Source: a virus (lineage: Duplodnaviria > Caudoviricetes). Taken from it: a stretch of DNA of 64,000 nt. The first letter of the stretch is position 1. Each line of letters begins with the position of its first letter. Shown here piece by piece: positions 4,011-48,879 of this stretch. Position numbers and translations under genes: made by a program. The notes beneath the pieces were generated by a model. It was not told the DNA's origin, ran no database searches, and saw nothing but the letters and a program-made list of their open reading frames with translations. The DNA lies in the IMG/VR virus record IMGVR_UViG_3300025357_000008, positions 106,262 to 170,261 of that record. One strand, given 5' to 3'.

Positions 4011-7000
4011 ATGGCAAGAAAAGTCATCCTTGATACGTACTACACGTTCATACCATCATCTAGAACGATTATTATACCGCACGTTGTACCTAAAGAACGT
4101 CTAGTTTTAATTACTGACTTGACAACAAATCAGGTTATTTTTAACTTCTCAGACCCTAACTTAACTACAACTGCATACACTATCGGTCTTGATACGACTG
4201 GTAATTATCCTAATGCGACCGTTACGACTGTTTCTTTAGCGTATAATACGACAGCACTATCTGCTACAGATAAGTTAAGTATTGTAGTTGACGAATACAA
4301 TGAGTCATTTCAGCCTTCTGAGACTCTATTAGATCCAGTTAACAAACTAAGAGTTTCAACACCACAGTCTTTGATTGATACCGACTTTGAGTATTCAACA
4401 CAAGCGACTAAGTGGGAATCTCTTTCTCGTACCAATATGAGACCGTTTTCATATTATATTACTTCAACAGGTAACCTAAACTTAATCGACTTACAAGCAG
4501 TTAACGGCTCAAGAAGTTTCACAGCAAATACAACAGGTTCAACACCACCAGCAGTTGGAACACCAATCACAATTTTAGATTCATTGTACGCTGGTGCTGA
4601 CGGTAACTATGTTGTAGATTCAAACAACAACCTGACAAACACAAACGCTTCAGGTGCCGCTAACACATTCTCATATACTGGTAAATTCTATTATACTGGT
4701 ACAACAGGTACGATTTATAATCAAAACGTAACAATTGGTTATCAAGGTTATGCATTTACAAACTCTGCAATCACAATTGCAGGTATGACAACTTCTGGTC
4801 AAAACGTATTTGTAACTACAGCAAATGCTCACGGCTTTATGCCTGGTAATGAAATTGCAGTTACTGGTGTGACAGGAACAAACCCACCAAACGGTTCATG
4901 GGTTGTTTCAACAATTATTAACCCATACAACTTCGTATATCAATGTAACGCATCTTCAATACCTTCTGGTACAATGACAGTATCAGGTGCATCTTTATAT
5001 GCAAGACCAGTCGGTACTCTAGTACATCGTTCATTTGACGGTGGTATTCGTTTCTCTACAAACTCTGGTTCACACAATCAGCAGTTTATTCGTCAGACAC
5101 GTAAGTATTTCCGTTATCAATCTGGTAAGGGTATTCAGTTGTCAACTGGTACAACATTGCAACCACAGTTTAACTTAGACGGTATCACATCAAGCGGTAC
5201 AACAGTTACAGTTACAACAAAAGACCCACACAATATTTCTGCTTCAATCGGTATTCAAATCGCTGGTTGTAACGAAGCGGCATATAACGGTAACTTTGCA
5301 ATCACAAACGTATTGAACCCATATCAGTTCACATATACAGCAAACTCTGTACCAGCAAATTCACCTGCATCTGGTAACTATGTTTGTTCTGCAACAACAT
5401 GGTATGGTTCTTCAAATCGTATCGGTATCTTCGATGACCAAAACGGCATGTTCTTTGAATATGACGGTTCTCAATTATATGCAGTAAGACGAAATGCGGT
5501 TTATCAGATTTCCGGTAACACTTGGATTAATGCTGGTTCAAATACATTAAACGGTAACAATACAATCTTTACTAAGCAGTTACAACCTAATGATTTTATT
5601 GTAATCAAAGGTATGCCACACCGTGTACACAACATTCTTACAGACTCTGTATTGACAGTTGTACCAACACTACGTGGTACTCAGAACGTCAACTCTGCTG
5701 TTATTAGTAAAGTTCAAGACGTTAAAACACCAGTTTCACAGTTTAACATTGATAGATTAGATGGAACAGGTCCTTCAGGTTATAAGATTGACTTGACAAA
5801 AGACCAAATGTTCTACATCGACTATTCATGGTACGGTGCTGGTTTTCAACGTTGGGGTGTTCGTGGACCTGATGGTAACGTAATATATGCACATAAAGTA
5901 ATTAATAATAACGTTAACTATCTTGCTTACATGCGTTCAGGTAACTTACCTGGTCGTTATGAAACTAATTCTTTCTCTAAGACTTCTGTTCTAACAGCAA
6001 ACGTTGCACCAACAGATACAACAATTACGATATCTAATGCAACTGGATGGCCAAATACCGGAGTAGCAGTAATTAGAAATACCTCTAATACTGAATACTT
6101 TGCGTATACAGGTATCACAGCACTTTCAAACGGTGCCGCACAGTTAACAGGCGCTCAACGTGGTGCCGCTTATCAAACGGGTAACACTGGTAATACATTG
6201 TATGTAACAACAGTTGCTGGTAATAATATTGTAACTATACCTGCAAGTAACACAACATATGGTTTGTCAAACGGTATGTACGTGTTTGGTCCTAACATTG
6301 CACCACAAACGTTTATTCAGAACATTGTTGCAAACACATATATTGTGTTGAATCAAGCACCAACTGCTTCTGGTAACTCGGCAGTTATTATTCCACCATT
6401 AGCAAACATTGCACAAACAGTTGTTGTATTGTCTGCAACTGGTGCTAACTCATTAACATACACTGGTAACAATCAAGGTGCTGTAGTTCCAACTGCTGTT
6501 GAGTTACATGCGCCATTATACGGACCTGAGATTAACCATTGGGGTACTTCAGCAATTATGGATGGCGGTTTCACACCAGATAAATCGTTCATTTTCTCAA
6601 AAGGTATGCAAACACCTTTAACAATTTATCCAGCCGGTGGTGCCGCTAACACAATGGCTCTTTGGAGTTTCCGTGTTGCGCCTTCTGCATCAAACGGTAT
6701 ACCAGCTTCTGCTCTTGGTGTTCGTGAGATTGTTAATCGTATGCAACAATTACCATTTGAACTTGATGCCTATTCTAACGGTGCTTGTTTGATGACTCTT
6801 GTATTGAACGGTAGCGTTTCAAATACAACAGCACAATGGCAAAACGTTGGTGGTTCTAGTTTGTCTCAATATGTTTTCCATGCACAGAATACAACAGTAT
6901 CTGGTGGTGAAACAGTTTTCGGATTCTTCTTGAATAACAACTTAGGAACATTCGGTTCAACTCAAAACGATTTGACACAATTGCTTTCACTTGGTACAAG

Positions 7001-7145: not shown

Positions 7146-7492
7146 TGCAAACAGCCGCACAACTTCCAGTATTACCGGTAGTATCTGAGAATACTACCTT
7201 TTACATGTCTGTTCAACCATCAACGCAAGTTGGTGGTAAAACAAGTTATGAGTTTGCGGCTACTTCATTAACATTTAATCCTTCAACAAATGTAGTAACG
7301 ATGAATGTGCTTTCGACTTTAACACTCAATGCATTTACATTAAATGCAGTCACATTAAATGCGGTTACTATGAATGTTACATCGAATTTATACACTGGTT
7401 CAATTAATATTTCGACAGGCTCAAACGTATTTGTAGGAACAACAAGGGTTGAGTCTCAGATACCTCATCCATTTTTACTATCGTTTTTGTAG
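7145..7492 (+). CDS. Small virion protein
   Basis: TLNA repeats; C-terminal HPFLL like NPFFL of ORF 1639. Confidence 0.5.
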   Translation: MQTAAQLPVLPVVSENTTFYMSVQPSTQVGGKTSYEFAATSLTFNPSTNVVTMNVLSTLTLNAFTLNAVTLNAVTMNVTSNLYTGSINISTGSNVFVGTTRVESQIPHPFLLSFL

Positions 7493-37344: not shown

Positions 37345-37734
37345 ATGCCGGACATGTTTAAGGAGATTATACCCTCCATACTTCAAACTAAGAAATGTGT
37401 AATAAATGACGAAGTAGACCGTAAGGATTATAAGTCATTTATCATTAATCGTTCTCTGTCTTATCACAGCGATTGCGTATTGTTTGTCAATGAAATCAAC
37501 AAGTTCCCTGAACTTGATGTGGATATGCAATACCAGTATCTTCTAAATACCATCAGACCTATGAAACGAAAATTTCAACCGTGGCAAAAGTCTGATAAAG
37601 AAAAGAATATTGATGTAGTGAAAGAGTTCTTTGGCTACTCAAATGCTAAGGCCAAAGAGGCTTTACGTATTCTTACCGATGAGCAAATCGCTGAAATAAA
37701 AATAAGAATAGATAAAGGCGGAATGAAAAAATGA
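37345..37734 (+). CDS. gp62: Clamp loader small subunit gp62
   Basis: FIINRSLSY, FFGYSNAKAKEAL. Confidence 0.93.
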   Translation: MPDMFKEIIPSILQTKKCVINDEVDRKDYKSFIINRSLSYHSDCVLFVNEINKFPELDVDMQYQYLLNTIRPMKRKFQPWQKSDKEKNIDVVKEFFGYSNAKAKEALRILTDEQIAEIKIRIDKGGMKK

Positions 37735-38138
37735 TTAATATTACCGATTTAGTTGAGGTGACTTTGAATGAAAAAGATGATTTTCTCAAAGTCAGAGAGA
37801 CTCTAACTCGTATCGGTGTAGCATCCAAAAAAGACAGAACACTATACCAATCTTGTCATATCCTGCACAAGAAAGGTCTTTACTACTTAGTTCACTTCAA
37901 AGAACTATTTGCACTTGATGGAAAGCCTACCGATATCACAGAAAACGATTTATCTCGTAGGAACGCTATTGCAAACCTATTAGAAGATTGGGGTCTGATT
38001 AAGATAGTCAAAAAAGAACAAACAGCAACACCAGAGCCAATCTTTTTGTCACAAGTCAAAATTCTGTCTCACAAAGAGAAGAATGAGTGGCAATTAGTAC
38101 CGAAATATAATATCGGTAAAAAACCTCAAAAGGATTGA
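37731..38138 (+). CDS. regA: Translational repressor RegA
   Basis: DFLKVRETLTRIG, LYQSCHILHK, HFKELF. Confidence 0.97.
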   Translation: MINITDLVEVTLNEKDDFLKVRETLTRIGVASKKDRTLYQSCHILHKKGLYYLVHFKELFALDGKPTDITENDLSRRNAIANLLEDWGLIKIVKKEQTATPEPIFLSQVKILSHKEKNEWQLVPKYNIGKKPQKD

Positions 38139-38163
38139 CATCTAGTATAAATACTAATATAAT
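38135..38163 (+). promoter_or_regulatory. Nested sigma70 and late promoters for hsp20
   Basis: TTGACA-17-TATAAT with TATAAATA (38146-38153) inside the spacer. Confidence 0.8.
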
Positions 38164-38200
38164 TATGTGTCGTGCTAATTCTAGGCGACAATTTTTTAAA

Positions 38201-38226
38201 CTTGCTTTTTTAAGGAGAAAACTATG
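38201..38226 (+). promoter_or_regulatory. ROSE-like RNA thermometer hairpin over the hsp20 RBS
   Basis: CTTGCTT pairs with AAGGAG leaving a bulged G; UUGCU motif upstream of an sHsp gene. Confidence 0.6.
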
Positions 38227-38673
38227 CTATCACTAGCAGATATTAAATCGTTTCAAAAATCTTTTGACCCATTCGCTGTGGGCTTTTTTGATGACTTACA
38301 CGGTCTTGCCCAACTAGCGGCAAAAAACCTCCCCAAATATCCACCATACAATATCAAACAAGTTGACGATAACAAATTCGTCATCGAGATGGCAGTCGCC
38401 GGATTCTCAAAACAAGATATTGAAGTGACACTCAAAGGAAACTCTTTGGTTGTTAATGGTAATATCAATGACAATAAAGATGCTGAAGTTAAGGATCAAT
38501 ACCTTTATAAAGGAATTGCTGACAGAGCCTTCACGCACGAGTTCAAGATTGCCGATAAGGTTGAAATCAAGAACGCTGAAATGGTCAACGGTATGTTGAA
38601 AATTTGGTTAGAGAATATGGTAAAAGCACAAGATGCGGTCAAGAAAATAACCATAAATACCAAAGATGAATAA
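38224..38673 (+). CDS. Small heat-shock protein Hsp20 (IbpA-like)
   Basis: YPPYNI, EMAVAGF, YKGIADRAF, NGMLKI. Confidence 0.95.
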   Translation: MLSLADIKSFQKSFDPFAVGFFDDLHGLAQLAAKNLPKYPPYNIKQVDDNKFVIEMAVAGFSKQDIEVTLKGNSLVVNGNINDNKDAEVKDQYLYKGIADRAFTHEFKIADKVEIKNAEMVNGMLKIWLENMVKAQDAVKKITINTKDE

Positions 38674-38743
38674 CTACTGGCCCGTATCAGACGAAGAATG
38701 GGAACGTCTAAATTACCCTGAGAAGTTCCAAAACAAGAAGTAA
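38666..38743 (+). CDS. Possible 25-aa peptide MNNYWPVSDEEWERLNYPEKFQNKK
   Basis: ATG overlaps the hsp20 end; stop just before the terminator. Confidence 0.35.
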   Translation: MNNYWPVSDEEWERLNYPEKFQNKK

Positions 38744-38747
38744 TTCC

Positions 38748-38801
38748 TGTTGCGGAAAAACAACAAGGGGTCTTGACAGACCCCTTTTTTTATAGTAGAA
38801 T
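38748..38801 (+). promoter_or_regulatory. TGTTG-N8-CAACA palindrome plus sigma70 promoter overlapping a terminator
   Basis: TTGACA (38773)-17-TAGAAT; -35 box forms the loop of AAGGGGTC/GACCCCTT-T tract. Confidence 0.75.
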
Positions 38802-38807
38802 ACAACC

Positions 38808-39011
38808 ATGAAAACGAATAAACCAATTCTAATTGAACTGCGTTCGCTAACGAACACAAAGCAAACTTACTGGACTTACTCTAATTGGGAAGAGAAAGAG
38901 ATAGACGGTGAGATGTTTACTCCTGTTACAAAGTTTATGCCTAATCAAAAACATAATACTGAATTGCATTATGTTAGGTCAAACAGTTTGGAAAAGATAC
39001 GAGAGTTTTAA
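38808..39011 (+). CDS. Hypothetical protein, probably leaderless
   Basis: ATG 7 nt after the -10 box; no SD. Confidence 0.55.
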   Translation: MKTNKPILIELRSLTNTKQTYWTYSNWEEKEIDGEMFTPVTKFMPNQKHNTELHYVRSNSLEKIREF

Positions 39012-39014
39012 TTT

Positions 39015-39089
39015 CTGGCGTTCGTTCAATGGATAGGACAGGATTCTTCTAAAGTCTTAATAGAGGTTCGATTCCTCTACGCCGGACCA
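39015..39089 (+). tRNA. tRNA-Arg(UCU)
   Basis: Cloverleaf, loop CTTCTAA, CCA end. Confidence 0.9.
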
Positions 39090-39090
39090 A

Positions 39091-39165
39091 CCTGGTATAG
39101 CATAGTGGTAGTGCCGAGAACTCATAATTCTTACGGGAAAGGTTCGAATCCTTTTGCCAGGACCA
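39091..39165 (+). tRNA. tRNA-CAU (Ile2 or Met)
   Basis: Loop CTCATAA, CCA end; identity not resolvable by eye. Confidence 0.8.
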
Positions 39166-39206
39166 TTTATTTTCGGTAATGATGTAGTAAAAACACAACA
39201 AATGTA

Positions 39207-39235
39207 TTGACAAGAATTAAAAATTGCTATATAAT
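39207..39235 (+). promoter_or_regulatory. Sigma70 promoter of the leader/attenuator
   Basis: TTGACA-17-TATAAT; TGTAG-N8-CAACA upstream. Confidence 0.9.
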
Positions 39236-39270
39236 AGAGACTTATTAAATTAATTAAGAAAGAAATAAAA

Positions 39271-39360
39271 ATGTTTACGAAACCGACATCCCATATAAGT
39301 TATCGCACAGAGATTTGCGATAATCAATCATGGGCCTTCCCAAAAGGGGTTTCTGTATAA
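39271..39360 (+). CDS. Putative attenuator leader peptide MFTKPTSHISYRTEICDNQSWAFPKGVSV
   Basis: 29 codons, 19 amino acids, 27 distinct codons; 3' end complementary to the terminator 5' arm. Confidence 0.75.
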   Translation: MFTKPTSHISYRTEICDNQSWAFPKGVSV

Positions 39361-39385
39361 GTTTTTAATCTAAGAGATTATACAC

Positions 39386-39422
39386 AAACCCCTAGCGTAA
39401 AAACTAGGGGTTTTTTGTTTTT
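39386..39422 (+). terminator. Attenuator terminator hairpin
   Basis: AAACCCCTAG-cgtaaaaa-CTAGGGGTTT + TTTGTTTTT; excludes pairing of 39345-39360 with 39378-39393. Confidence 0.85.
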
Positions 39423-39514
39423 GGAAGTTGATGCAGGTGCGTTGGTGCGCCGACCAGCCTTGAAAACTGGGTTCTCAGAAATGGGATGGGGTTCGACTCC
39501 TCCGACTTCCGCCA
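39423..39514 (+). tRNA. tRNA-Ser(UGA), non-canonical 8/4-type fold
   Basis: Loop CTTGAAA, long variable arm, G73-CCA. Confidence 0.8.
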
Positions 39515-39521
39515 GTATTTT

Positions 39522-39608
39522 GGAAGATGTGTTGCAAGGTGCGACAGAGGTTTGCTAAACCTTCGTTCAGAAATGGGCAGATAGGTTCGATTCCTATATC
39601 TTCCGCCA
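39522..39608 (+). tRNA. tRNA-Ser(GCU)
   Basis: Loop TTGCTAA, long variable arm, G73-CCA. Confidence 0.85.
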
Positions 39609-39614
39609 GGATAT

Positions 39615-39690
39615 GTACGTGTGACCCGAAAGGCTAGGGAGCAGATTGCAAATCTGTTTTATGTAGGTTCGATTCCTATCACGTACTCCA
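39615..39690 (+). tRNA. tRNA-Cys(GCA)
   Basis: Loop TTGCAAA, U73-CCA. Confidence 0.92.
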
Positions 39691-39699
39691 AAATTATTT

Positions 39700-39773
39700 T
39701 GTTGTAATCTTGCAACAAAGTATTGACAAATGATTTTTAGTGTGTTACACTAGAGTCTGTTCTTTAAAAATTT
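39700..39773 (+). promoter_or_regulatory. TGTTG-N8-CAACA, sigma70 promoter and boxA-like element
   Basis: TTGACA (39723)-17-TACACT; TGTTCTTTAAAAATTT at 39758. Confidence 0.75.
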
Positions 39774-39785
39774 GAGGTAGTTTTT

Positions 39786-39860
39786 GCTCGGTTCGTCTAT
39801 CGGTTAGGACACCGCTCTTTCACGGCGGGAAGACCAGTTCGATTCTGGTACCGAGTACCA
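39786..39860 (+). tRNA. tRNA-Glu(UUC)
   Basis: Loop CTTTCAC, CCA. Confidence 0.92.
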
Positions 39861-39982
39861 TTTGTTTTGCTGACGTAAGCCATGGGGGAAACGTCAACCC
39901 TGAGTAACTGCGTATATAAACGGTAAGGTGGCCACTAATTCCGTTGAACGTAGCAAATAGTGCGTCAGCAAAACAAATGGTA
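39856..39982 (+). ncRNA. Structured spacer RNA closed by a 20-bp stem
   Basis: TACCATTTGTTTTGCTGACG / CGTCAGCAAAACAAATGGTA perfect inverted repeat. Confidence 0.6.
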
Positions 39983-39987
39983 TTATT

Positions 39988-40062
39988 GGGGATATAACTT
40001 AACGGCTAAAGTAACTGGCTTTTAACCAGTAAATCAGAGTTCGATTCTCTGTGTCCCTACCA
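39988..40062 (+). tRNA. tRNA-Lys(UUU)
   Basis: Loop CTTTTAA, CCA. Confidence 0.92.
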
Positions 40063-40145
40063 TATAAAAACACATTGCCCTAGAAGCGGTGAGATGAATG
40101 ACACAATAGGCTCACAAGGGGTGTCGCAATGTGTTTTTATATGGT
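40059..40145 (+). ncRNA. Structured spacer RNA closed by a 20-bp stem, with possible internal pseudoknot
   Basis: ACCATATAAAAACACATTGC / GCAATGTGTTTTTATATGGT perfect inverted repeat. Confidence 0.6.
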
Positions 40146-40219
40146 CTCATAGTATAGCCTGGTGATTACAGCGGCTTGTCACGCCGTCAACAGGGGTTCG
40201 AATCCCCTTGGGACCGCCA
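40143..40219 (+). tRNA. tRNA-Asp(GUC)
   Basis: Loop TTGTCAC, G73-CCA. Confidence 0.92.
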
Positions 40220-40276
40220 GATTTTGTGGCATTTGCACAGTCACCAAGATAGTGCATTGTAAGTCCAATCTAATAT

Positions 40277-40351
40277 TCCTCAGTAGCTCAGAGGCAGAGC
40301 AAAGCACTGTTAATGCTTGGGTCCGTGGTTCGATCCCACGCTGAGGAGCCA
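40277..40351 (+). tRNA. tRNA-Asn(GUU)
   Basis: Loop CTGTTAA, G73-CCA. Confidence 0.93.
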
Positions 40352-40356
40352 AATAA

Positions 40357-40434
40357 CTCGGTATAGGCTAGCCCGGTCAAGTCACCTGCTTTGGGAGCAG
40401 GATATCGCAAGTTCGAATCTTGCTACCGAGACCA
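40357..40434 (+). tRNA. tRNA-Pro(UGG)
   Basis: Loop TTTGGGA, CCA. Confidence 0.92.
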
Positions 40435-40441
40435 ATATAAT

Positions 40442-40526
40442 GGAGATGCCGCCGCAATGGTGTGGCAGGGGACTGTAAATCCTCCGACTTCGGTCACGAT
40501 TGGTTCGATCCCAATCATCTCCACCA
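40442..40526 (+). tRNA. tRNA-Tyr(GUA)
   Basis: Loop CTGTAAA, long variable arm, CCA. Confidence 0.92.
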
Positions 40527-40538
40527 TTTAGGAAAATT

Positions 40539-40784
40539 ATGAATTATATCATAACATTTTTAGCAGTATTCATTACAGATATCTTGTATTGTTTTTTTAT
40601 AAAAGCAATGAGCGAAGATAAAATGTTTCTTGCAAGTATCTGGAGTTGCTTAGTAACATTTGCCGCAAGTGTAGCGGCAATTAATTATATTGATGACCAT
40701 ACAATGATAATTGCATCTGTATTAGGTGCATTTTGTGGTACATATGTTGCAATGAAGTTGAGAAAAACATTATTGGGGGATTAG
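40539..40784 (+). CDS. Small multi-TM membrane protein (ATG at 40539)
   Basis: Three hydrophobic segments; AGGA RBS. Confidence 0.65.
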   Translation: MNYIITFLAVFITDILYCFFIKAMSEDKMFLASIWSCLVTFAASVAAINYIDDHTMIIASVLGAFCGTYVAMKLRKTLLGD

Positions 40785-40849
40785 TGATAATGGGAGCACA
40801 TGTGCTTTGCAAGCATGAAGTAGGAGTTCGATTCTCCTATCCTCCACCA
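40775..40849 (+). tRNA. tRNA-Ala(UGC)
   Basis: Loop TTTGCAA, G3:U70, CCA. Confidence 0.92.
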
Positions 40850-40898
40850 AATCTCACCCTTACATACGGTGTACAATAGGAAAAGTAGTATGTAATAT

Positions 40899-40973
40899 GG
40901 TGACGTAGCTCAACGGTAGAGCATTTCCTTCATACGGAAAAGGTTGTGGGCTCGGTTCCCTCCGTCACTACCA
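40899..40973 (+). tRNA. tRNA-Met(CAU), probably elongator; atypical T-loop CTCGGTT
   Basis: Loop TTCATAC, CCA. Confidence 0.8.
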
Positions 40974-40979
40974 AATTGT

Positions 40980-41053
40980 TGGGGATTAGTTAAATGGTAT
41001 AACAATGGATTTTGATTCCATCATCATAGGTTCGATTCCTATATCCCCTGCCA
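40980..41053 (+). tRNA. tRNA-Gln(UUG)
   Basis: Loop TTTTGAT, open 1:72 pair, G73-CCA. Confidence 0.9.
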
Positions 41054-41055
41054 AA

Positions 41056-41130
41056 CGGTCTTTAGTAAAATGAATATTACACCTTGCTACGAACGAGGAA
41101 GTGGGAGTTTGATTCTCTCAGGACCGTCCA
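41056..41130 (+). tRNA. tRNA-Arg(ACG)
   Basis: Loop CTACGAA, CCA. Confidence 0.85.
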
Positions 41131-41134
41131 ATTA

Positions 41135-41208
41135 GCCCTTATAGTATAGTGGTATTACAACGGATTTGTAACCCGTTGACGGGAGTTCGATTCTCTCTTG
41201 GGGCACCA
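41135..41208 (+). tRNA. tRNA-Thr(UGU)
   Basis: Loop TTTGTAA, CCA. Confidence 0.88.
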
Positions 41209-41215
41209 AATACAT

Positions 41216-41289
41216 ACCCCGTTAGCTCAATGGCAGAGCAAAGTGCTGATAACGCTGAGACAGAAGTTCGATTCTTCTACAGGGTACCA
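41216..41289 (+). tRNA. tRNA-Ile(GAU)
   Basis: Loop CTGATAA, CCA. Confidence 0.9.
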
Positions 41290-41293
41290 ATAT

Positions 41294-41367
41294 CTCTCGC
41301 AAGTGTTCCGGTAGCACAAGGTTCTCCAAAAGCCTTGGACGGGGTTCGATTCCCTGGCGAGAGGCCA
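41294..41367 (+). tRNA. tRNA-Trp(CCA)
   Basis: Loop CTCCAAA, G73-CCA. Confidence 0.9.
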
Positions 41368-41368
41368 A

Positions 41369-41959
41369 TTATCTTAGAAATCCTTGTATCTCGCTGATTG
41401 CATCTTGAATTGCATCGGATGAATAGAAGTAATCTAAAAGATTTTCCGACATAAGATTGAGAATTTCAATTCTTCTTTCCATGTTCTTACGAGTATTCTT
41501 CAAGTTGTCAATATGGTTCTGTGTGAACTTTTGCAACATGTTTTCTTTTTTCTTTGATTTGATTCGTACAACAATCAATTCAAATTTGTGTATTTGTTTA
41601 CTTATTTCGGCAATGTTATTGTTGACGTTTTTAATACCCTCAATAATATCACCTTTCATCATCATAATTAAATCATCCGTAATAGGATCCATTTTGTTTA
41701 TGAAATGGTGCAACAGATTAGCAAGTTCATTCATAACTTCGGCATTTATGTCTCTAGGTTGTTCGTAATTGCCGGTAGCATCATAATTGGCTCGTCTTTG
41801 AGGATCGCTAAGGATCTCATAAGCCATTTTAATTTTTTTAAACGTTTCTTCATCACCACCTTTGTCTGGATGATGTATTTGTGCTAAAGTTCTGTATGCA
41901 TGTTTAATTTCTTCACTTGTACAGTCTGGTGATAATTCCAGTAGTTTGTATAGGTCCAT
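41369..41959 (-). CDS. J-domain (DnaJ-like) protein with coiled coil
   Basis: DLYKLL, HPDKGG, AYEILSDP..R..YD. Confidence 0.9.
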   Translation of the reverse strand: MDLYKLLELSPDCTSEEIKHAYRTLAQIHHPDKGGDEETFKKIKMAYEILSDPQRRANYDATGNYEQPRDINAEVMNELANLLHHFINKMDPITDDLIMMMKGDIIEGIKNVNNNIAEISKQIHKFELIVVRIKSKKKENMLQKFTQNHIDNLKNTRKNMERRIEILNLMSENLLDYFYSSDAIQDAISEIQGFLR

Positions 41960-42012
41960 GATGTTTAAATAGTAGTTGTTAGTTATTTATTGTTGTAAAA
42001 GAGAGGTGTTCT

Positions 42013-42489
42013 ATGAGAGATTTCGATGTACAAAAAGTCAAAGATTTTATCTTGTCTCAAGGTCCAGATACTAGAGTATATCTTGGTGCCGACTCAGAAC
42101 GTCTTAGAGTTAATGGTGTATGGTATGCCGACTATGCACTTGCCGTTGTTGTTCATATTGATGGTTGCCATGGTTGTAAGATTTTCGGTTTTGTAGACCG
42201 TGAATTAGATTACGACCACAAGAAAAGTAAACCAGCAATGCGTTTGATGACAGAGGTATATAAAGTATCTGAATTGTTTCAAGAAATGGCAGATGTCTTA
42301 GAAGACCGCCATGTCGAAGTACATTTAGACTTAAATAAATCTGATGAATTTGGTTCTTCTTGCGTTGTGCAACAAGCAATAGGATACATCAAAGGTACAT
42401 GTGATATCACTCCTATGGTGAAACCAGATGCACCTGCCGCAAGTTTTTGCGCTGACAGATTGAAAAGAATCTTGGCAGAGCAGGAATAA
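42013..42489 (+). CDS. RNase H-like YkuK (DUF458) family protein
   Basis: YLGADS, RLMTEV, EVHLDLN, KPDAPAAS..AD. Confidence 0.75.
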   Translation: MRDFDVQKVKDFILSQGPDTRVYLGADSERLRVNGVWYADYALAVVVHIDGCHGCKIFGFVDRELDYDHKKSKPAMRLMTEVYKVSELFQEMADVLEDRHVEVHLDLNKSDEFGSSCVVQQAIGYIKGTCDITPMVKPDAPAASFCADRLKRILAEQE

Positions 42490-42494
42490 ATAAT

Positions 42495-42571
42495 GGAGAC
42501 TATAGTGTAACGGTTTAGCACCCGACTCTGTGAAAGTCGTAGAATGGGTTCGTCTCCCATTAGTCTCCCCA
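42495..42571 (+). tRNA. tRNA-His(GUG)
   Basis: Loop CTGTGAA, G-1:C73, CCA. Confidence 0.92.
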
Positions 42572-42590
42572 AACTTTGTTAAGGAAAATT

Positions 42591-42863
42591 ATGAAAATAG
42601 GTGGTATCTATTATGAGATTCTTCATAAGACAAATGAAGAAATGAATGGCAATATTGGTCTTGCTGATTTCAATAGACAAGAAATTAGCATCAATACTGA
42701 CCATACAATGCAAACTCAAAAAATTGCTTTAGTGCATGAGATTTTGCACATACTAGACAGCACCTATCATCTTAAATTAACCGAAGAACAAGTAATCTAT
42801 ACCGCACATGCGCTAATAGGTTTCATTGAAGATAACAAAGATTTTCTGACCGATTTATTATAA
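42591..42863 (+). CDS. Small HExxH metallopeptidase-like protein
   Basis: ALVHEILH; ATG at 42591 after AAGGA. Confidence 0.65.
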   Translation: MKIGGIYYEILHKTNEEMNGNIGLADFNRQEISINTDHTMQTQKIALVHEILHILDSTYHLKLTEEQVIYTAHALIGFIEDNKDFLTDLL

Positions 42864-42872
42864 AGGAATATT

Positions 42873-43133
42873 ATGTACACACCCTTGCATGACAAGATTA
42901 TCGTTCAACGACTTGAAAAAGTCAATCAAACCGCTTCCGGTATTATACTCAAATCTTCACCCGAACCAGATAGAGCAAAAGTTGTTTCTATCGGTCCTGA
43001 TGTTGAAGAAGTTGCTGTAGGAGAAGAAATTCTCGTAAACTGGAACGGAGCAATTAAAGTAAAAGATGACTTATATACTTTAAAAGTAGAACACGTTGTA
43101 GGTGTTTTTGAAGATAATGCCTCGGTAGTTTAA
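42873..43133 (+). CDS. groES: Co-chaperonin GroES/Cpn10
   Basis: PLHDKIIV, TASGIIL, VVSIGP. Confidence 0.88.
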   Translation: MYTPLHDKIIVQRLEKVNQTASGIILKSSPEPDRAKVVSIGPDVEEVAVGEEILVNWNGAIKVKDDLYTLKVEHVVGVFEDNASVV

Positions 43134-43192
43134 TGGTAGAACGGCATCCTTACACGGTGCATACGGGAGTTCGATTCTCCAACGAGGTACCA
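43119..43192 (+). tRNA. tRNA-Val(UAC)
   Basis: Loop CTTACAC, CCA. Confidence 0.88.
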
Positions 43193-43195
43193 GAT

Positions 43196-43271
43196 GCAAC
43201 TTTAGCTGATGTGGTCATAGCGGTGGTTTGAAGAGCCATTGAAACAGGTTCGATTCCTGTAGGTTGCACCA
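43196..43271 (+). tRNA. tRNA-Phe(GAA)
   Basis: Loop TTGAAGA, CCA. Confidence 0.88.
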
Positions 43272-43274
43272 GAT

Positions 43275-43358
43275 GCCCTGGTGGTGGAATTGGTAGACAC
43301 ACTGGTATTAGAAGCCAGCGCCAAAAGCATGAGAGTTCGAGTCTCTCCTAGGGCACCA
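43275..43358 (+). tRNA. tRNA-Leu(UAG)
   Basis: Loop ATTAGAA, long variable arm, CCA. Confidence 0.9.
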
Positions 43359-43390
43359 GTATAAATAAAGATTTAATAATATGCTACACC

Positions 43391-43936
43391 ATGTCACATA
43401 AAGAACAAAGAGATTTTATTACTAAACTCAAAGAAAAATTCCCAAATAATTTCAGAAACATTAAAATGCTTGAAATTGGTAGTCTAGATATAAATGGATC
43501 TATTAGAGAGTATTTTGAAAACTGCAACTATATTGGTTATGATGTAGGTGAAGGAAAACTCGTTGATGTTGTTTATGATGGGATCACATTTAGAGCAGAA
43601 GATATAGAATTTGATACTACCGGAAGTTGTAATTGTTTTGAGCATAATCCTAATTGGGTATCCAATTTTAAAGATATGCACAGAATATTAAAATCTGGTG
43701 GTTTACATTTTATATCTGTACCGACAACAGGATGCCCTGAACATGGTACTGAAAAAGAAAAATCAGATGATAGTCCTTTGACGATTGCAAAAGGTGAAGG
43801 GTGGAAAGATTATTATAAGAATCTAACCGAAGAAGACTTCAGAGAAAACTTTAATTTAGATGAAATGTTTAGTGAATATAAATTTGAAGTAAACGATGAA
43901 GCTCACGATTTATATTTTTACGGTATTAAAAAATAA
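43391..43936 (+). CDS. Class I SAM-dependent methyltransferase (late promoter)
   Basis: LEIGSLDINGS, CFEHNP, RILKSGG. Confidence 0.8.
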   Translation: MSHKEQRDFITKLKEKFPNNFRNIKMLEIGSLDINGSIREYFENCNYIGYDVGEGKLVDVVYDGITFRAEDIEFDTTGSCNCFEHNPNWVSNFKDMHRILKSGGLHFISVPTTGCPEHGTEKEKSDDSPLTIAKGEGWKDYYKNLTEEDFRENFNLDEMFSEYKFEVNDEAHDLYFYGIKK

Positions 43937-44011
43937 GCGGGTATGGTGCTAGTGGTAACACATGACTTTGCCAAAGTTAAGTTACGAGTTCGATTCTCGT
44001 TACCCGCTCCA
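43937..44011 (+). tRNA. tRNA-Gly(GCC)
   Basis: Loop TTGCCAA, U73-CCA. Confidence 0.92.
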
Positions 44012-44029
44012 AAGTCATTATAAATATAT

Positions 44030-44103
44030 TGCGGGATGGTGAAATGGTATCACAGAGGACTCATAATCCTCAGTTCCTCGTTCGAATCTTGGTCCCGCAA
44101 CCA
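44030..44103 (+). tRNA. tRNA-CAU, initiator-like acceptor (TGCGGGA)
   Basis: Loop CTCATAA; preceded by TATAAATA; anticodon stem has GGA rather than GGG. Confidence 0.75.
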
Positions 44104-44107
44104 AAAA

Positions 44108-44845
44108 CTACTTCAAATTTAATATTTGTTCAGCTTCTTGTATTCTTGTTCTGGTACTTCTGCTACCTAAGATTACAAGTATCTTATCATCCGTCAACAT
44201 TACAATACACCCACCTGCGGGAAACGTCCATCCAGTCTTACTGACTTGAATATTGGTATGTTTTTCTGTAAGTGGGTTTGTGTTTGTGTAATCTACCCAT
44301 TTATCATTGATTAGAATTTTAGTTCTATATTGTTTGCTTAATGATATCAAAGGATAATTTTTTGCTTCTTTGACGAGTAACATTAAGTCTTTTGCCGTAC
44401 TGATATTTTCTTTATCTAATCCTGTTGGCTCAATAATTTTAGTATTCTGCATACCTATTTGAATTGCTTTATTATTAATTGCCTCAATACAAGCATTTAA
44501 ACCACCGGTATAATTTTGACATAAAGTTAAAGCGGCACGATTATCTGACGATACTAATGCCATCTCTATCAAATCTTTTCTTGTAGTCTTTTGATTTTTT
44601 CTTGGTAACTTATCTCTTAGTTCTGTAGTAAGAGTTAAGACTTGTGTTAAATCTTGTTTAGCATCTATTACTACCATTGCAGTAAGTAATTTTGTGATAC
44701 TAGCGATTGAACGCACTTCATCTATATTTTGAGATGCTATAATAGTGCCATTAATATCAGCCAATAGCCATGACTTTGCTGTTAATGTTTTTGCATTACA
44801 GAATAGTGAAAACGTTAATAGACAGATAAATAATAGACGAGACAA
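44108..44845 (-). CDS. D-Ala-D-Ala endo/carboxypeptidase (peptidase S11, PBP7/PbpG-like), signal peptide
   Basis: SITK (SxxK), SDN (SxN), KTG motifs. Confidence 0.9.
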   Translation of the reverse strand: MSRLLFICLLTFSLFCNAKTLTAKSWLLADINGTIIASQNIDEVRSIASITKLLTAMVVIDAKQDLTQVLTLTTELRDKLPRKNQKTTRKDLIEMALVSSDNRAALTLCQNYTGGLNACIEAINNKAIQIGMQNTKIIEPTGLDKENISTAKDLMLLVKEAKNYPLISLSKQYRTKILINDKWVDYTNTNPLTEKHTNIQVSKTGWTFPAGGCIVMLTDDKILVILGSRSTRTRIQEAEQILNLK

Positions 44846-45022
44846 ATAAAACCTCTTTTTGCATTGATGAATGAATATTTATGGACGTTCATATACACTC
44901 ATTTCAACAATCAAATGCGCTTCACAACAAAACTTTTAGAACATTTAGAAACAATAGAAAATGTCGGTAAATTTTTTCTGATGTTTTTTATATTTGGTAT
45001 ATCAGTCACCGTTTTTGTTTTA

Positions 45023-45829
45023 CTATTCCTCTGGTGGGCTTTCAAAAGTAGGCTTCTGTGACCTTTCAATATAGTTTAGAATTTCTCTTTTACGAAGTTC
45101 TTCATAACGATATTGATTAGTGTGGTGCATTAAATCTGGATATCTTTTTTGTGCATCATTTGCAACTACAGCAAAAATGCATCCTGCGGCAAACAAAATA
45201 ATTAGAAAAAGACCACCAAAATAAGCATCAGCTTTTAGTGTTCGCATTAAGGCTTCTTTTCTTCTTAAAGCGGCCGCTTCCATTTTCATTCTCTTGGCAA
45301 TAAGAACTTTTTCTTGTTTACCAAGTTCATCCATCATTTTGTTTACATCAGACCATAGAGCACCAAGTTCCGGTGGGCTTTGGTATACAACAAGCTCACG
45401 TAAATCGACACTCATTTGTTCTAATTTCTTTTTCATTAAAACTCGTTGTAATGCACGTTTACCTATACTAGCATCACCTTCATAGATATGTGTTTGACTA
45501 TGCTTTTCTTCTTCCTCTAGGACAGTTTTGCATTTGTGGAAAGCATCAAAGAATTCGCCAAGTTTTTCACCGATTTCTGAATACACATCGTCAGTTTCAC
45601 CGCCCTTTTTATTGAGTTCGATGATTTCATTTTTCTTTTCTTGTAATTGTTTCTTTTGCTCGTATGTAGGAGGCTTATCTTTATGATTGGCGTGGAACTG
45701 CTTATCAAGGTCGTCAAGCACTTCTTTAACATTGCCTGCCGCACCTTTGATATCTTTGTAGAGTTGACAACCTTTTTTAACCGCCGCAACAGCGGCATTC
45801 GCCATAGCGAATAGTGTAATTGGATCCAT
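45023..45829 (-). CDS. Coiled-coil protein with C-terminal TM helix
   Basis: MDPITLFAMANAAVAAVKKG; hydrophobic segment near residue 205-225. Confidence 0.65.
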   Translation of the reverse strand: MDPITLFAMANAAVAAVKKGCQLYKDIKGAAGNVKEVLDDLDKQFHANHKDKPPTYEQKKQLQEKKNEIIELNKKGGETDDVYSEIGEKLGEFFDAFHKCKTVLEEEEKHSQTHIYEGDASIGKRALQRVLMKKKLEQMSVDLRELVVYQSPPELGALWSDVNKMMDELGKQEKVLIAKRMKMEAAALRRKEALMRTLKADAYFGGLFLIILFAAGCIFAVVANDAQKRYPDLMHHTNQYRYEELRKREILNYIERSQKPTFESPPEE

Positions 45830-45889
45830 GTAGCGTTATGATTACCAGATTTAATAGTCAAAATACATGGTAAAGATAACAGGAACTGC

Positions 45890-45918
45890 TTGACAGTTCG
45901 GACGATTTCATATATAAT
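45890..45918 (+). promoter_or_regulatory. Sigma70 promoter for tRNA-Gly/gp43 unit
   Basis: TTGACA-17-TATAAT. Confidence 0.85.
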
Positions 45919-45937
45919 AGATGAACTATCTATTTAT

Positions 45938-46011
45938 GCGTGGTTAGTTTAATGGTAGAATTAGAGCCTTCCAAGCTCAAGACAGGGGTTCGATTCCCCT
46001 ACCACGCTCCA
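45938..46011 (+). tRNA. tRNA-Gly(UCC)
   Basis: Loop CTTCCAA, U73-CCA. Confidence 0.92.
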
Positions 46012-46027
46012 ACATTATAAGGTTATT

Positions 46028-46333
46028 ATGATTCAAATATTGAAATTGGTTACAGGTGAAGAAGTTTTGGGTGAAATCACTAAGACCGACAAAATCCTCA
46101 CAGTTAAAAATCCGGTAGGTGTCGTTGCCGTTCGTGGTAAAGATGGGCAACCGAACATCGGATTTTCACCATTTCCACTACATGCTGATCCAGTCAAAGA
46201 TTTAACTATTGACTTTTCGGTCGATTCTGTAGTATACTCATACACACCAGCACAAGATTTTATTGATAACTACAATCAAATCTTCGGTTCAGGCATCGTA
46301 CTTCCAAAACCAAAAGAAATTATCCTAGGATGA
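46028..46333 (+). CDS. Conserved hypothetical protein (Sm-like)
   Basis: ILKLVTGEEVLG...YNQIFGSGIVLP. Confidence 0.6.
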   Translation: MIQILKLVTGEEVLGEITKTDKILTVKNPVGVVAVRGKDGQPNIGFSPFPLHADPVKDLTIDFSVDSVVYSYTPAQDFIDNYNQIFGSGIVLPKPKEIILG

Positions 46334-48879
46334 ACTTTTACACAAGCGTTCACGTTATCGGCAATAACGTAATGTTTCGAGGTATCAGAAATGGTAAAAG
46401 AGTCAGACAAAAGATTGAATACTCACCATCTCTGTATCTTGAAACAAAAAAAGATTCCAAATACAAAAGTCTGCAAGGTCTAAACTTAGAGCAAAGAAAA
46501 TTTGAAACTATCCGTGATGCTAGAGACTTTCTAGACGGTTGGCGAGATGTTTCTAATGCACCTAAGATATATGGTCAGGCTCGTTTTGAATATGCTTATA
46601 TCACAGACCATTACCCTGGTTTGATTGATTACGACTTTGAGCATGTAAGAGTTGCCGTAATTGATATCGAGGTCGGTTCAGAGAATGGTTTTCCTGACCC
46701 ATACGAAGCGACAGAACCCATCACAGCAATTTGTATTCAATGGGTCAATGGTAAGACCTATGTTTTTGGCTGTGGCGACTATGAGACTAAAGGTGACGAA
46801 ATTTATGTGAAGTGTAAAGATGAATATGACCTTTGCAAAAAATTCGTAATGCTATGGGCTGAAGATCCACCAGATATTCTATCCGGCTGGTACATGAAAG
46901 ACTTTGACGTACCATATCTCGTCAATCGTTTTAGACGTATTGTAGGCGAAGATTTCGCAAAACAACTTTCACCATGGAACATAATCAAAGAACGTAAGAC
47001 TATCATTAATGGTAAACAAGTTCTTTATTACGAATTACTTGGTGTCTCTTGTCTCGATTATATTGACCTATACAAATGGTATGCTCCTAACGGTAAGTCA
47101 CAAGAAAACTATCGTCTAGAAACTATTGCACAAGTTGAATTGGGTGAAGGTAAGTTATCGTATGATGAATATGATAATCTACACACATTGTATAGACTCG
47201 ACTATCAAAAGTTTATCGAATATAACATCAAAGACGTTGGTCTTGTAATGAGACTTGAAGAAAAGTTAAAGTTACTTGAACTTGCCATCTCTTTGACCTA
47301 TGATACGAAATCAAATTACGATGATGTGTTTGCACAGACTCGTATGTGGGATGCATTGACTTATTCTTACCTAAAAGAGAAAGATATCATTGTACCGCCA
47401 CGTATTGTTAAAGACAAAGATATGGCATTTGAAGGTGCGTATGTAAAAGAGCCTCAAGTAGGTTTCCATGAGTATGTTGTTTCGTTTGACTTGAATTCTC
47501 TGTATCCTCATTTAATGATGCAATACAATATCAGTCCTGAAACTCTTATTGAGCCTGAAGAATATGATGATGAAATGCGAGCCGTAATTTCACAAGGTAT
47601 TAATGTTGATAAACTTTTATCAAAGAGTATTGATATGTCTTCTTTACCAAAAGATGTTGTTATAACACCGAATGGTCAGTTCTTCAGTAAAAATATTCGT
47701 GGTTTCTTACCACAGATGTTGGAAGAGATGTATGAAGATAGAAAGAAGTTTAAGAAACTATACCTACAAGCAAAACAAGAACTAGAAAACGAAAAGGATG
47801 TCTCTAAACACTATGAAATTGAAAAGAAAATTGCAAGATATAATAATCTACAACTTGCAAAAAAAGTGGGTCTCAACTCTGCCTATGGTGCTCTTGGGTC
47901 TCAGTACTTTCGCTTTTTTGACCTTCGGTTGGCTCTGGCTGTTACTACGGCTGGTCAGTTAAGTATTCGTTGGATTCAAGATAAGATTAATGATTACATG
48001 AACAAACTGTTGAAGACAGAAACTGATTATGTAATTGCATCTGATACTGATTCAATCTATTTAAGACTTGGTGACTTGGTCAAAAAAGTTTATGGTGTGG
48101 ATGGTGAAGTATCTTTACCTAAAACTAAGATAATCGACTTTATGGACAAGGTTTGTAGAGACAAACTTGAGCCTTATATTGATAAGTCTTATAAAGAACT
48201 CGGTGATTATATGCAAGTGTTTGCACAAAAGATGCAAATGAAACGTGAATCACTTGCCGACAAGGGTATGTGGACTGCAAAGAAACGATATATTCTTAAT
48301 GTGTATGATAATGAAGGTGTTCGATATAATGAGCCAGACCTTAAGATTATGGGTCTAGAAGTTATTAAATCATCTACACCATCCGCTATCCGTGTTAAGA
48401 TGAAAGAGATGATTGCATTGATAATGAAAGGTACCGAAAAAGATATTCAGAAGTTCATCAAAGACTTCAAGAAAGAATTCAAAGCGATGCCAGCAGAAGA
48501 GATTTCCTTCCCAAGAGGTGTGAATGGTATAAAGAATTATTCTAATGCCGGTGGGCAACTCTATATAAAAGGTACACCTATTCATGTCAAAGGCGCAATT
48601 CTTTATAATCACTATCTAAAACAAATGAAACTTACCAAAAAGTATGAATTGATTAAAGAAGGTGAGAAGATTAAGTTTACCTATCTGAAAGAACCTAATC
48701 CATTCAAAGATTCGGTAATATCATTCCCAAGTCGTATTCCTGCCGAGTTTGGGCTTGACAAGTACATAGACTATGAGTTACAATTCGAAAAGACATTCTT
48801 AGGACCTATGCAGACAATTCTTGATTGCGTTGGCTGGAGGGCTGAGAAACTTAATACGCTAGAAGGATTCTTCAAATGA
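46330..48879 (+). CDS. gp43: Family B DNA polymerase gp43
   Basis: DIEV exonuclease, FDLNSLYP, KVGLNSAYG, SDTDS. Confidence 0.98.
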   Translation: MNFYTSVHVIGNNVMFRGIRNGKRVRQKIEYSPSLYLETKKDSKYKSLQGLNLEQRKFETIRDARDFLDGWRDVSNAPKIYGQARFEYAYITDHYPGLIDYDFEHVRVAVIDIEVGSENGFPDPYEATEPITAICIQWVNGKTYVFGCGDYETKGDEIYVKCKDEYDLCKKFVMLWAEDPPDILSGWYMKDFDVPYLVNRFRRIVGEDFAKQLSPWNIIKERKTIINGKQVLYYELLGVSCLDYIDLYKWYAPNGKSQENYRLETIAQVELGEGKLSYDEYDNLHTLYRLDYQKFIEYNIKDVGLVMRLEEKLKLLELAISLTYDTKSNYDDVFAQTRMWDALTYSYLKEKDIIVPPRIVKDKDMAFEGAYVKEPQVGFHEYVVSFDLNSLYPHLMMQYNISPETLIEPEEYDDEMRAVISQGINVDKLLSKSIDMSSLPKDVVITPNGQFFSKNIRGFLPQMLEEMYEDRKKFKKLYLQAKQELENEKDVSKHYEIEKKIARYNNLQLAKKVGLNSAYGALGSQYFRFFDLRLALAVTTAGQLSIRWIQDKINDYMNKLLKTETDYVIASDTDSIYLRLGDLVKKVYGVDGEVSLPKTKIIDFMDKVCRDKLEPYIDKSYKELGDYMQVFAQKMQMKRESLADKGMWTAKKRYILNVYDNEGVRYNEPDLKIMGLEVIKSSTPSAIRVKMKEMIALIMKGTEKDIQKFIKDFKKEFKAMPAEEISFPRGVNGIKNYSNAGGQLYIKGTPIHVKGAILYNHYLKQMKLTKKYELIKEGEKIKFTYLKEPNPFKDSVISFPSRIPAEFGLDKYIDYELQFEKTFLGPMQTILDCVGWRAEKLNTLEGFFK

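Follow-up and report, generated by a model that had tools for sequence, protein, structure and literature searches.

A virus record of 170 kb in IMG/VR ends with the stretch of DNA that we analysed (64,000 nucleotides, called the window here). The phage's family-B DNA polymerase shares about 49 per cent identity with gp43 of T4-like cyanophages, and its genome has a G+C content of 37 per cent. The source is an uncultured T4-like phage. The window includes an array of 25 tRNA genes over 7 kb, flanked or interrupted by genes that Pfam identifies as encoding the RegA translational repressor (37731-38135), Hsp20 (38224-38670), a J-domain protein (41372-41959, minus strand), an RNase H-like protein (42013-42486), and Cpn10/GroES (42873-43130). 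At the head of this array lies a leader element of ~180 nt, present as a single copy in the 170-kb genome.

The element begins with a sigma70-type promoter on the plus strand (39207-39235), with its −35 box at 39207-39212 and its −10 box at 39230-39235. An earlier note on this DNA, whose positions and counts proved correct on checking, had called the promoter a consensus one, and it does match TTGACA-17-TATAAT at 12/12 positions. The −10 box has a CCTATATAAT-like context that is kept in relatives, and transcription would start at ~39242. A weak Shine-Dalgarno-like stretch of purines, AAGAAAG, can be read from the sequence at 39256-39262 (plus strand), 8 nt 5' of an ATG. Weak sites of this kind are also found at other genes of the genome; relatives either have GGAG or AGGAAG here or are leaderless.

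The ATG opens a leader ORF of 29 codons plus a stop codon (39271-39360, plus strand). As the note had counted, the ORF encodes 19 of the 20 amino acids, with Leu missing, places 17 of them within the first 22 codons, and uses 27 distinct codons if the ATG is included. There is no regulatory codon run: the 28 sense codons include 26 different ones, and most residues occur once. The note also described a switching of synonyms between repeated residues. The listed synonym pairs are present, but the switching is not significant given the amino-acid sequence (P = 0.076), and the idea of a sampler at the codon level is not supported beyond what amino-acid diversity itself yields. The leader codons are only mildly rare (5th percentile), and their match to the phage anticodons is not distinctive (82 per cent vs 78 per cent genome-wide).

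Inside the ORF is a hairpin, P1, at 39299-39324 (plus strand), which the note had recognized as a possible polymerase pause site and which we measured as 9 bp (−9.9 kcal/mol, z = −3.2). It remains a candidate RNA polymerase pause hairpin. Shortly after it, a Trp codon (39331-39333, plus strand) lies within the word TCATGG. The last 16 nt of the ORF (39345-39360), which encode its final codons and stop codon, can pair at 15/16 positions with 39378-39393; these are the 5' and 3' arms of an antiterminator hairpin on the plus strand, and RNAfold places a small inner stem in its apical part (39361-39377). The last 8 nt of the 3' arm (39386-39393) are also the 5' arm of an intrinsic terminator (39386-39422, plus strand). 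The terminator stem pairs 39386-39395 with 39404-39413 in 10 bp, including five G-C pairs, and is followed by the U-tract TTTTTTGTTTTT (39414-39422), as expected of an intrinsic (Rho-independent) terminator. It is the strongest terminator in the region and ends right before a tRNA-Ser gene, as the note had proposed.

This first gene to be reached by read-through is tRNA-Ser(UGA), at ~39423-39514 (plus strand). ARAGORN misses it at default settings and calls it only at a relaxed threshold; its Rfam assignment is to the tRNA clan, where the best score comes from the tRNA-Sec model (35.5 bits, below threshold). In the nearest relatives (L003, L002, and L008) ARAGORN makes no call directly 3' of the terminator, and its first call is a tRNA-Ser(GCU) ~104 nt downstream. 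These misses, both here and in the nearest relatives, suggest an unusual arm geometry. The tRNA-Ser(UGA) gene is real but atypical. ARAGORN identifies the next two genes, tRNA-Ser(GCU) and tRNA-Cys(GCA), at 39522-39690 (plus strand). They are followed by a second promoter (39723-39751, plus strand), which the note had also pointed out; it matches the consensus at 10/12 positions with an extended TG and would drive the array independently from tRNA-Glu onward.

We scanned positions 37500-46500 with the Rfam leader families (Trp, His, Leu, Thr, and Phe) and the T-box and found no match with E up to 1. The only Rfam match in the element is a weak one to STnc490 on the minus strand (E = 0.13). The long spacers between tRNA-Glu and tRNA-Lys (39861-39987) and between tRNA-Lys and tRNA-Asp (40063-40142) gave no Rfam family in the scan.

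Relatives of the element and their reading frame

Relatives were collected in three steps. Loci found through the neighbouring Hsp20 gene were scanned with a nucleotide profile; IMG/VR was then scanned with a pattern made from the promoter, the inner hairpin, and the Trp codon; and an independent sample came from an IMG/VR pattern scan that used the two antiterminator arms only. Together these gave 63 distinct leader peptides in at least seventeen clusters at 60 per cent identity. A blastn search of cultured-phage records with the window element and a main-clade element returned only tRNA-like matches, and at this sensitivity none of the records carries the element.

Wherever a related locus extends downstream of the element, a tRNA array follows with the element at its head. 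The terminator abuts a tRNA within 3-47 nt, with no promoter between, in the window's clade and in six other lineages. The largest clade has a second promoter ~26 nt after the terminator, followed by tRNA-Gln. The earlier note had predicted that related loci would keep the ORF, the pairing, and the amino-acid diversity while the sequence drifts, and each part of this prediction was borne out.

The ORF's frame is open in 43/43 distinct nucleotide versions, compared with 7/43 and 0/43 for the other two frames, and the length differences among leaders are multiples of three. Start codons follow the type of leader. In the twenty-three leaderless versions, where the start codon lies six bases after the −10 box, ATG is used in 23/23; the twenty versions with an upstream purine-rich or GGAG-type site include ten with ATG, eight with GTG, and two with TTG. 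This is the pattern that the rules of translation initiation would predict. From these comparisons we infer that the ORF is translated upstream of the genes it would regulate.

More than half of the related leaders are leaderless (e.g. L089, L116, L085, L075, and L050), and as predicted leaderless genes of T4-like phages they form a set of unusual clarity. The closest relative, L015 (leader 7291-7389, element 90 per cent identical to that of the window), has a one-base insertion before the antiterminator arm. Its ORF runs on in the +1 frame and ends 8 nt later, in the antiterminator loop, still with 19 amino acids.

Few residues of the peptide are conserved. They are E-Y-R-T and S-W, and their codons are invariant, with no synonymous change in about forty sequences. 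In the RNA, these codons make up the arms of the inner hairpin and its flank; other positions drift. The absence of synonymous change points to a constraint on the RNA and not on the peptide. A P1-type hairpin occurs inside the ORF in 17/17 cluster representatives, with differing inner stems and no synonymous variation in the P1 codons. Among aligned leaders, TGG is found in 40/41 and the preceding TCA in 39/42, and the Trp codon lies 8-16 nt upstream of the antiterminator arm in nearly all copies. The peptide alignment contains no conserved stretch of 7-10 residues, and four diverse leader peptides had no Pfam or PHROG family at E up to 1. The drift of the peptide and the lack of a family match argue for a cis-acting leader and against a functional micropeptide.

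Amino-acid content of the leaders

The 63 distinct leaders are 25-47 amino acids long (median 36). All 20 amino acids are present in forty-five of them, 19 in fourteen, and 17 in four; for a random peptide, the chance of such a content is 2e-4 to 2e-3. Random peptides of phage composition have about 15 distinct amino acids on average and reach all 20 with a probability of 2e-4 to 1.4e-3; real protein windows of the genome are no better at reaching 20, and the other two reading frames of the leader DNA encode 15.3 and 16.0. The sample chosen by the switch motif alone shows the same completeness, with 20/20 amino acids in nineteen of its twenty-one leaders and 19/20 in the other two.

For the window leader by itself, the simulation of random 29-codon ORFs that the earlier note had suggested makes 19 or more amino acids uncommon (P = 0.0016; 0.0010 in the genome's real protein windows). 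Because a genome offers many short ORFs to pick from, this value is weak by itself and would not withstand a correction for multiple testing.

The weight of the argument lies in the comparison with relatives. Shuffling alignment columns among the seventeen cluster representatives lowered the mean number of amino acids from 19.2 to 17.4 (sd 0.25; 0/5000 shuffles reach the observed value) and the number of complete leaders from 9 to 0.8. Between nearest neighbours, residues that occur once and vanish from their column turn up again at least six columns away in 29/45 cases (14.8 expected); these events are phylogenetically non-independent, so their P values are only indicative. The single Tyr, for example, is placed differently in the window leader and in L015, as is the single His in L077 and L113. 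Column shuffling and the relocation of once-only residues thus show that shared ancestry does not explain the completeness. In randomizations that held fixed the residues shared with the nearest relative, single lineages gave modest P values (0.002-0.9).

Alternative folds of the leader RNA

The leader RNA is strongly structured (z = −5.9). The 15/16 pairing that the earlier note had found between the end of the ORF and 39378-39393 was reproduced, and the best pairing in 20,000 shuffles of the upstream 107 nt was 13/16. The antiterminator and terminator are mutually exclusive, with 8 nt common to both helices.

RNAalifold found no consensus structure in a MAFFT alignment of forty sequences, probably reflecting gaps and the two competing helices. 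We therefore list pair counts for the named structures on the same alignment. For the antiterminator, 83 per cent of cells are paired, compared with 31-59 per cent when the partner is slid by one to three columns. Changes on both sides are found in eight of thirteen pairs, including one that is U-A in twenty-one sequences and G-C in fifteen, and the covariation score is 0.202, compared with 0.100 in shuffles (0/500 reach the observed score). The arms of the window pair GGGGTTT with AAACCCC; other leaders pair GGGTTTT with AAAACCC, GGGTCTT with AAGACCC, or GGGTTCGT with ACGAACCC. Terminator stems, which we judged by folding each sequence and listing its stem, also co-vary, with at least twelve different and perfectly complementary stems among the relatives. 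Only four other perfect-stem terminators occur in the genome, too few for a control.

Which helix wins in silico differs with the part of the RNA that is folded. In transcripts cut 5' of the terminator's 3' arm, the antiterminator is the minimum-energy fold in most of the seventeen cluster representatives (L051, L015, and L125 are uninformative in these folds, as the cut point was misplaced). In the 3' part alone, from P1 to the terminator, the complete antiterminator wins for the window and for six other representatives. The full 180-nt window transcript, folded as free RNA, has 9/10 terminator pairs alongside a partial antiterminator with 7/16; in part of this fold the A-rich 5' end reaches across the molecule to pair with the U-tract. 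What happens in the cell would depend on the order in which the RNA is made and not on the equilibrium fold.

A word near the start of the ORF, GAAACC (39279-39284, plus strand, codons 3-5), could act as an anti-antiterminator. It can form 6 bp with 39348-39353, it does so in the minimum-energy fold of the free RNA, and there is one compensatory pair in the comparison with L003. Across the family, pairing of the ORF's 5' word with the antiterminator arm is not significant (mean z −0.83).

We also folded the window RNA with a ribosome footprint masked. A footprint on the stop codon gives 9/10 terminator pairs and 0/16 antiterminator pairs, and one at codon 10 gives 15/16 antiterminator pairs and 0/10 terminator pairs, as the note's model predicts. 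When the footprint is placed at codon 21 or 23, the terminator persists at equilibrium with 9/10 pairs, beside a partial antiterminator with 7/16. The stop codon lies inside the 5' arm in the window; in relatives it comes 11-33 nt downstream of the first base of the arm. The ORF overlaps the switch segment, so in these models the position of the ribosome selects the fold.

The same geometry limits what could be sensed. If the footprint extends ~12 nt past the A-site codon, a stall leaves the antiterminator arm free only up to about the near-invariant Trp codon, which is codon 21 in the window leader and the last such stall position. The earlier note had proposed that a stall at almost any codon before the stop would free the arm; this would hold up to about codon 21 and fail for the later codons. 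The sensing zone contains 16-19 amino acids in 21-29 codons, compared with 12.6-14.6 expected. The arm itself encodes Val, so that in 36/43 leaders this residue is found nowhere upstream of the arm and falls outside the zone. Ala, Gly, and His are outside the zone in about a third of leaders, and an internal Met is present in only 21/63, leaving two-thirds without an elongator Met. Given the placement of Val, Ala, Gly, and His and the scarcity of Met, this simple geometry cannot sense all 20 amino acids. A single codon per amino acid would also sense less strongly than the runs of codons found in classical attenuators. The missing Leu and the weak Shine-Dalgarno-like site of the window leader likewise count against the reading.

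A probable attenuator and its rivals

Taken on sequence comparisons, the element is probably a ribosome-mediated attenuator with a near-complete leader, in which slow decoding of most amino acids raises transcription of the phage tRNAs. Host RNA polymerase would start at the 39207 promoter and transcribe the 29-codon leader, and P1 may pause it and so synchronize it with the ribosome. Smooth translation to the stop codon would leave a ribosome covering the 3' end of the leader, where it would block the antiterminator; the terminator would fold, and transcription would end one base before tRNA-Ser. If the ribosome were absent, or stalled upstream as far as about the Trp codon, 39345-39360 would pair with 39378-39393 first. 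This helix would use up the 5' arm of the terminator (39386-39413), and polymerase would read through into tRNA-Ser, tRNA-Ser, and tRNA-Cys and on into the array. With nearly every amino acid present once in the leader, a delay in decoding almost any of them would raise tRNA synthesis. Possible triggers are a shortage of an amino acid, the loss or cleavage of host tRNAs, and a mismatch in codon usage.

The comparative tests support this reading of the earlier note, with corrections to the role of the codons, the extent of the stall zone, the reach into the array, and the second promoter. The note had suggested that strict control may extend only to the genes for Ser, Ser, and Cys. There is no terminator between tRNA-Cys and the 39723 promoter, so read-through would add to the whole array. 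At the same time, the second promoter (at 39723 in the window and ~26 nt after the terminator in most relatives) makes the gate a partial one, which would add to tRNA transcription and not wholly control it.

More tentatively, the element may be a surveillance switch for the whole tRNA pool, combining counter-defence on demand with control of supply. Anticodon nucleases might cut host tRNAs, host shut-off might lead to their degradation, or the codon demand of the AT-rich phage might exceed their supply; stalls on the all-amino-acid leader would then boost the array, and the new phage tRNAs would restore termination and close the loop.

An attenuator could also sense only overall translation capacity, or the coupling of transcription and translation, in which case completeness would play no part in sensing. 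Such a sensor would fit with single codons being weak sensors, with several amino acids lying outside the stall zone, and with elongator Met being mostly absent; free RNA also tends to the antiterminator, so the absence of ribosomes alone would open the gate. We consider it unlikely, as a coupling sensor needs no completeness, yet completeness holds in leaders chosen without reference to the ORF, and once-only residues have been relocated far more often than chance in a way that keeps it. There is likewise little chance that the element is a self-contained small gene, encoding a micropeptide or a small RNA of ~180 nt, that merely adjoins the array and uses the extra helix for RNA stability or its own translation. 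The new promoter that follows the terminator in most relatives would suit a unit of this kind, as would the strong structure of the leader RNA, and small RNAs derived from attenuators and acting in trans are described in PMC6614838. The peptide, however, drifts freely except where RNA structure fixes the nucleotides, and the four diverse leaders compared match no Pfam or PHROG family. The conserved helix, moreover, takes up precisely the 5' arm of the terminator and co-varies with it, and seven lineages, that of the window among them, have a tRNA close behind the terminator and no intervening promoter.

The near-invariant S-W codons sit at the boundary of the sensing zone, where a nascent-peptide arrest sensor of the TnaC, SecM, or Erm-leader type might have a Ser-Trp motif that stalls the ribosome on a small molecule. 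Their invariance extends to third codon positions, however, which marks a constraint on nucleotides; the residues around S-W vary widely, and L051 and L006 have no Trp at that place. An arrest sensor is thus highly improbable. A chance ORF that happens to lie between a promoter and a terminator would find some support in the modest P of 0.0016 for the diversity in the window alone and in the abundance of short ORFs, but the comparative data effectively refute it: the frame is open in all forty-three diverged copies, the start codon tracks the type of leader, and the helix co-varies.

Among the known systems closest to an attenuator of this sort are the leader peptides of enterobacterial amino-acid operons, including trpL, hisL, leuL, and pheL and the multivalent thrL and ilvL, which respond to two or three amino acids. 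Like the trpL and hisL type, the phage element has a short leader ORF, a mutually exclusive antiterminator and terminator, a choice that would be made by ribosome position, and a possible pause hairpin in the leader. Unlike them, it has about one codon each for nearly all amino acids in place of a regulatory codon run, it belongs to a phage, and the genes it would regulate encode tRNAs and not biosynthetic enzymes. A further difference may lie in the response to a lack of translation, which the truncated and 3'-part folds suggest would give read-through and not super-attenuation, although the full-length fold keeps the terminator.

In Firmicutes, the leaders of bmrB-bmrCD and vmlR belong to a group of antibiotic-responsive attenuators of resistance genes that Term-seq has found widely. 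There, too, a general slowing of elongation on a short leader leads to read-through of a terminator. These leaders differ in that the ribosomes are stalled by a drug, the leader has no amino-acid completeness, and the controlled genes are for efflux or ribosome protection. By analogy, the logic of the phage element appears nearest to these general-slowdown leaders and to the multivalent thr and ilv leaders. T-box riboswitches also couple the state of the tRNA pool to a choice between antiterminator and terminator, but each of them directly binds a single uncharged tRNA, they lack an ORF, and their targets are aminoacyl-tRNA synthetase and amino-acid genes.

The tRNA clusters of T4 and T5 contain interspersed small stable RNAs and short ORFs. 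Like the array here, they have tRNA genes that share early promoters with small units other than tRNAs. A full-text literature search found no leader-peptide attenuator described for the T4 and T5 clusters, nor any report that phage tRNA genes are attenuated or that a leader is made of all amino acids. The read-out of a his-leader attenuator has been used to measure the reading speed of single or multiple codons (PMC4046918); the assay described there is an engineered Salmonella reporter, not a natural all-amino-acid leader.

Why phages carry tRNA genes, and how these are regulated, is debated; according to the main proposals, they compensate for codon usage, replace host tRNAs that have been degraded, or let the phage escape defences that cleave tRNAs. 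If our reading is true, the element would be without known precedent both as an attenuator of tRNA genes and as one built as an amino-acid 'pangram'. Because the element is short (~180 nt) and has a sigma70 promoter and an intrinsic terminator, the idea of supply on demand could be tested directly in reporter constructs, and the element might be put to use as a small natural sensor for translation stress in general.

Three minor observations concern the surroundings of the leader. The gene for RegA lies beside it, and RegA could repress translation of the leader and so open the gate. A boxA-like word, TGTTCTTTAAAAATTTG, is found at 39760-39776 in the window, after the 39723 promoter, and directly after the leader terminator in L051 (~4360-4380); transcripts from read-through or from the second promoter may recruit an antitermination complex of the rRNA type. 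Last, a short inverted repeat of the TGTTG ... CAACA type is found just upstream of tRNA-region promoters, at 39701-39718 in the window and between the leader terminator and the next promoter in L067, L046, and L077, and could be an operator for some regulator.
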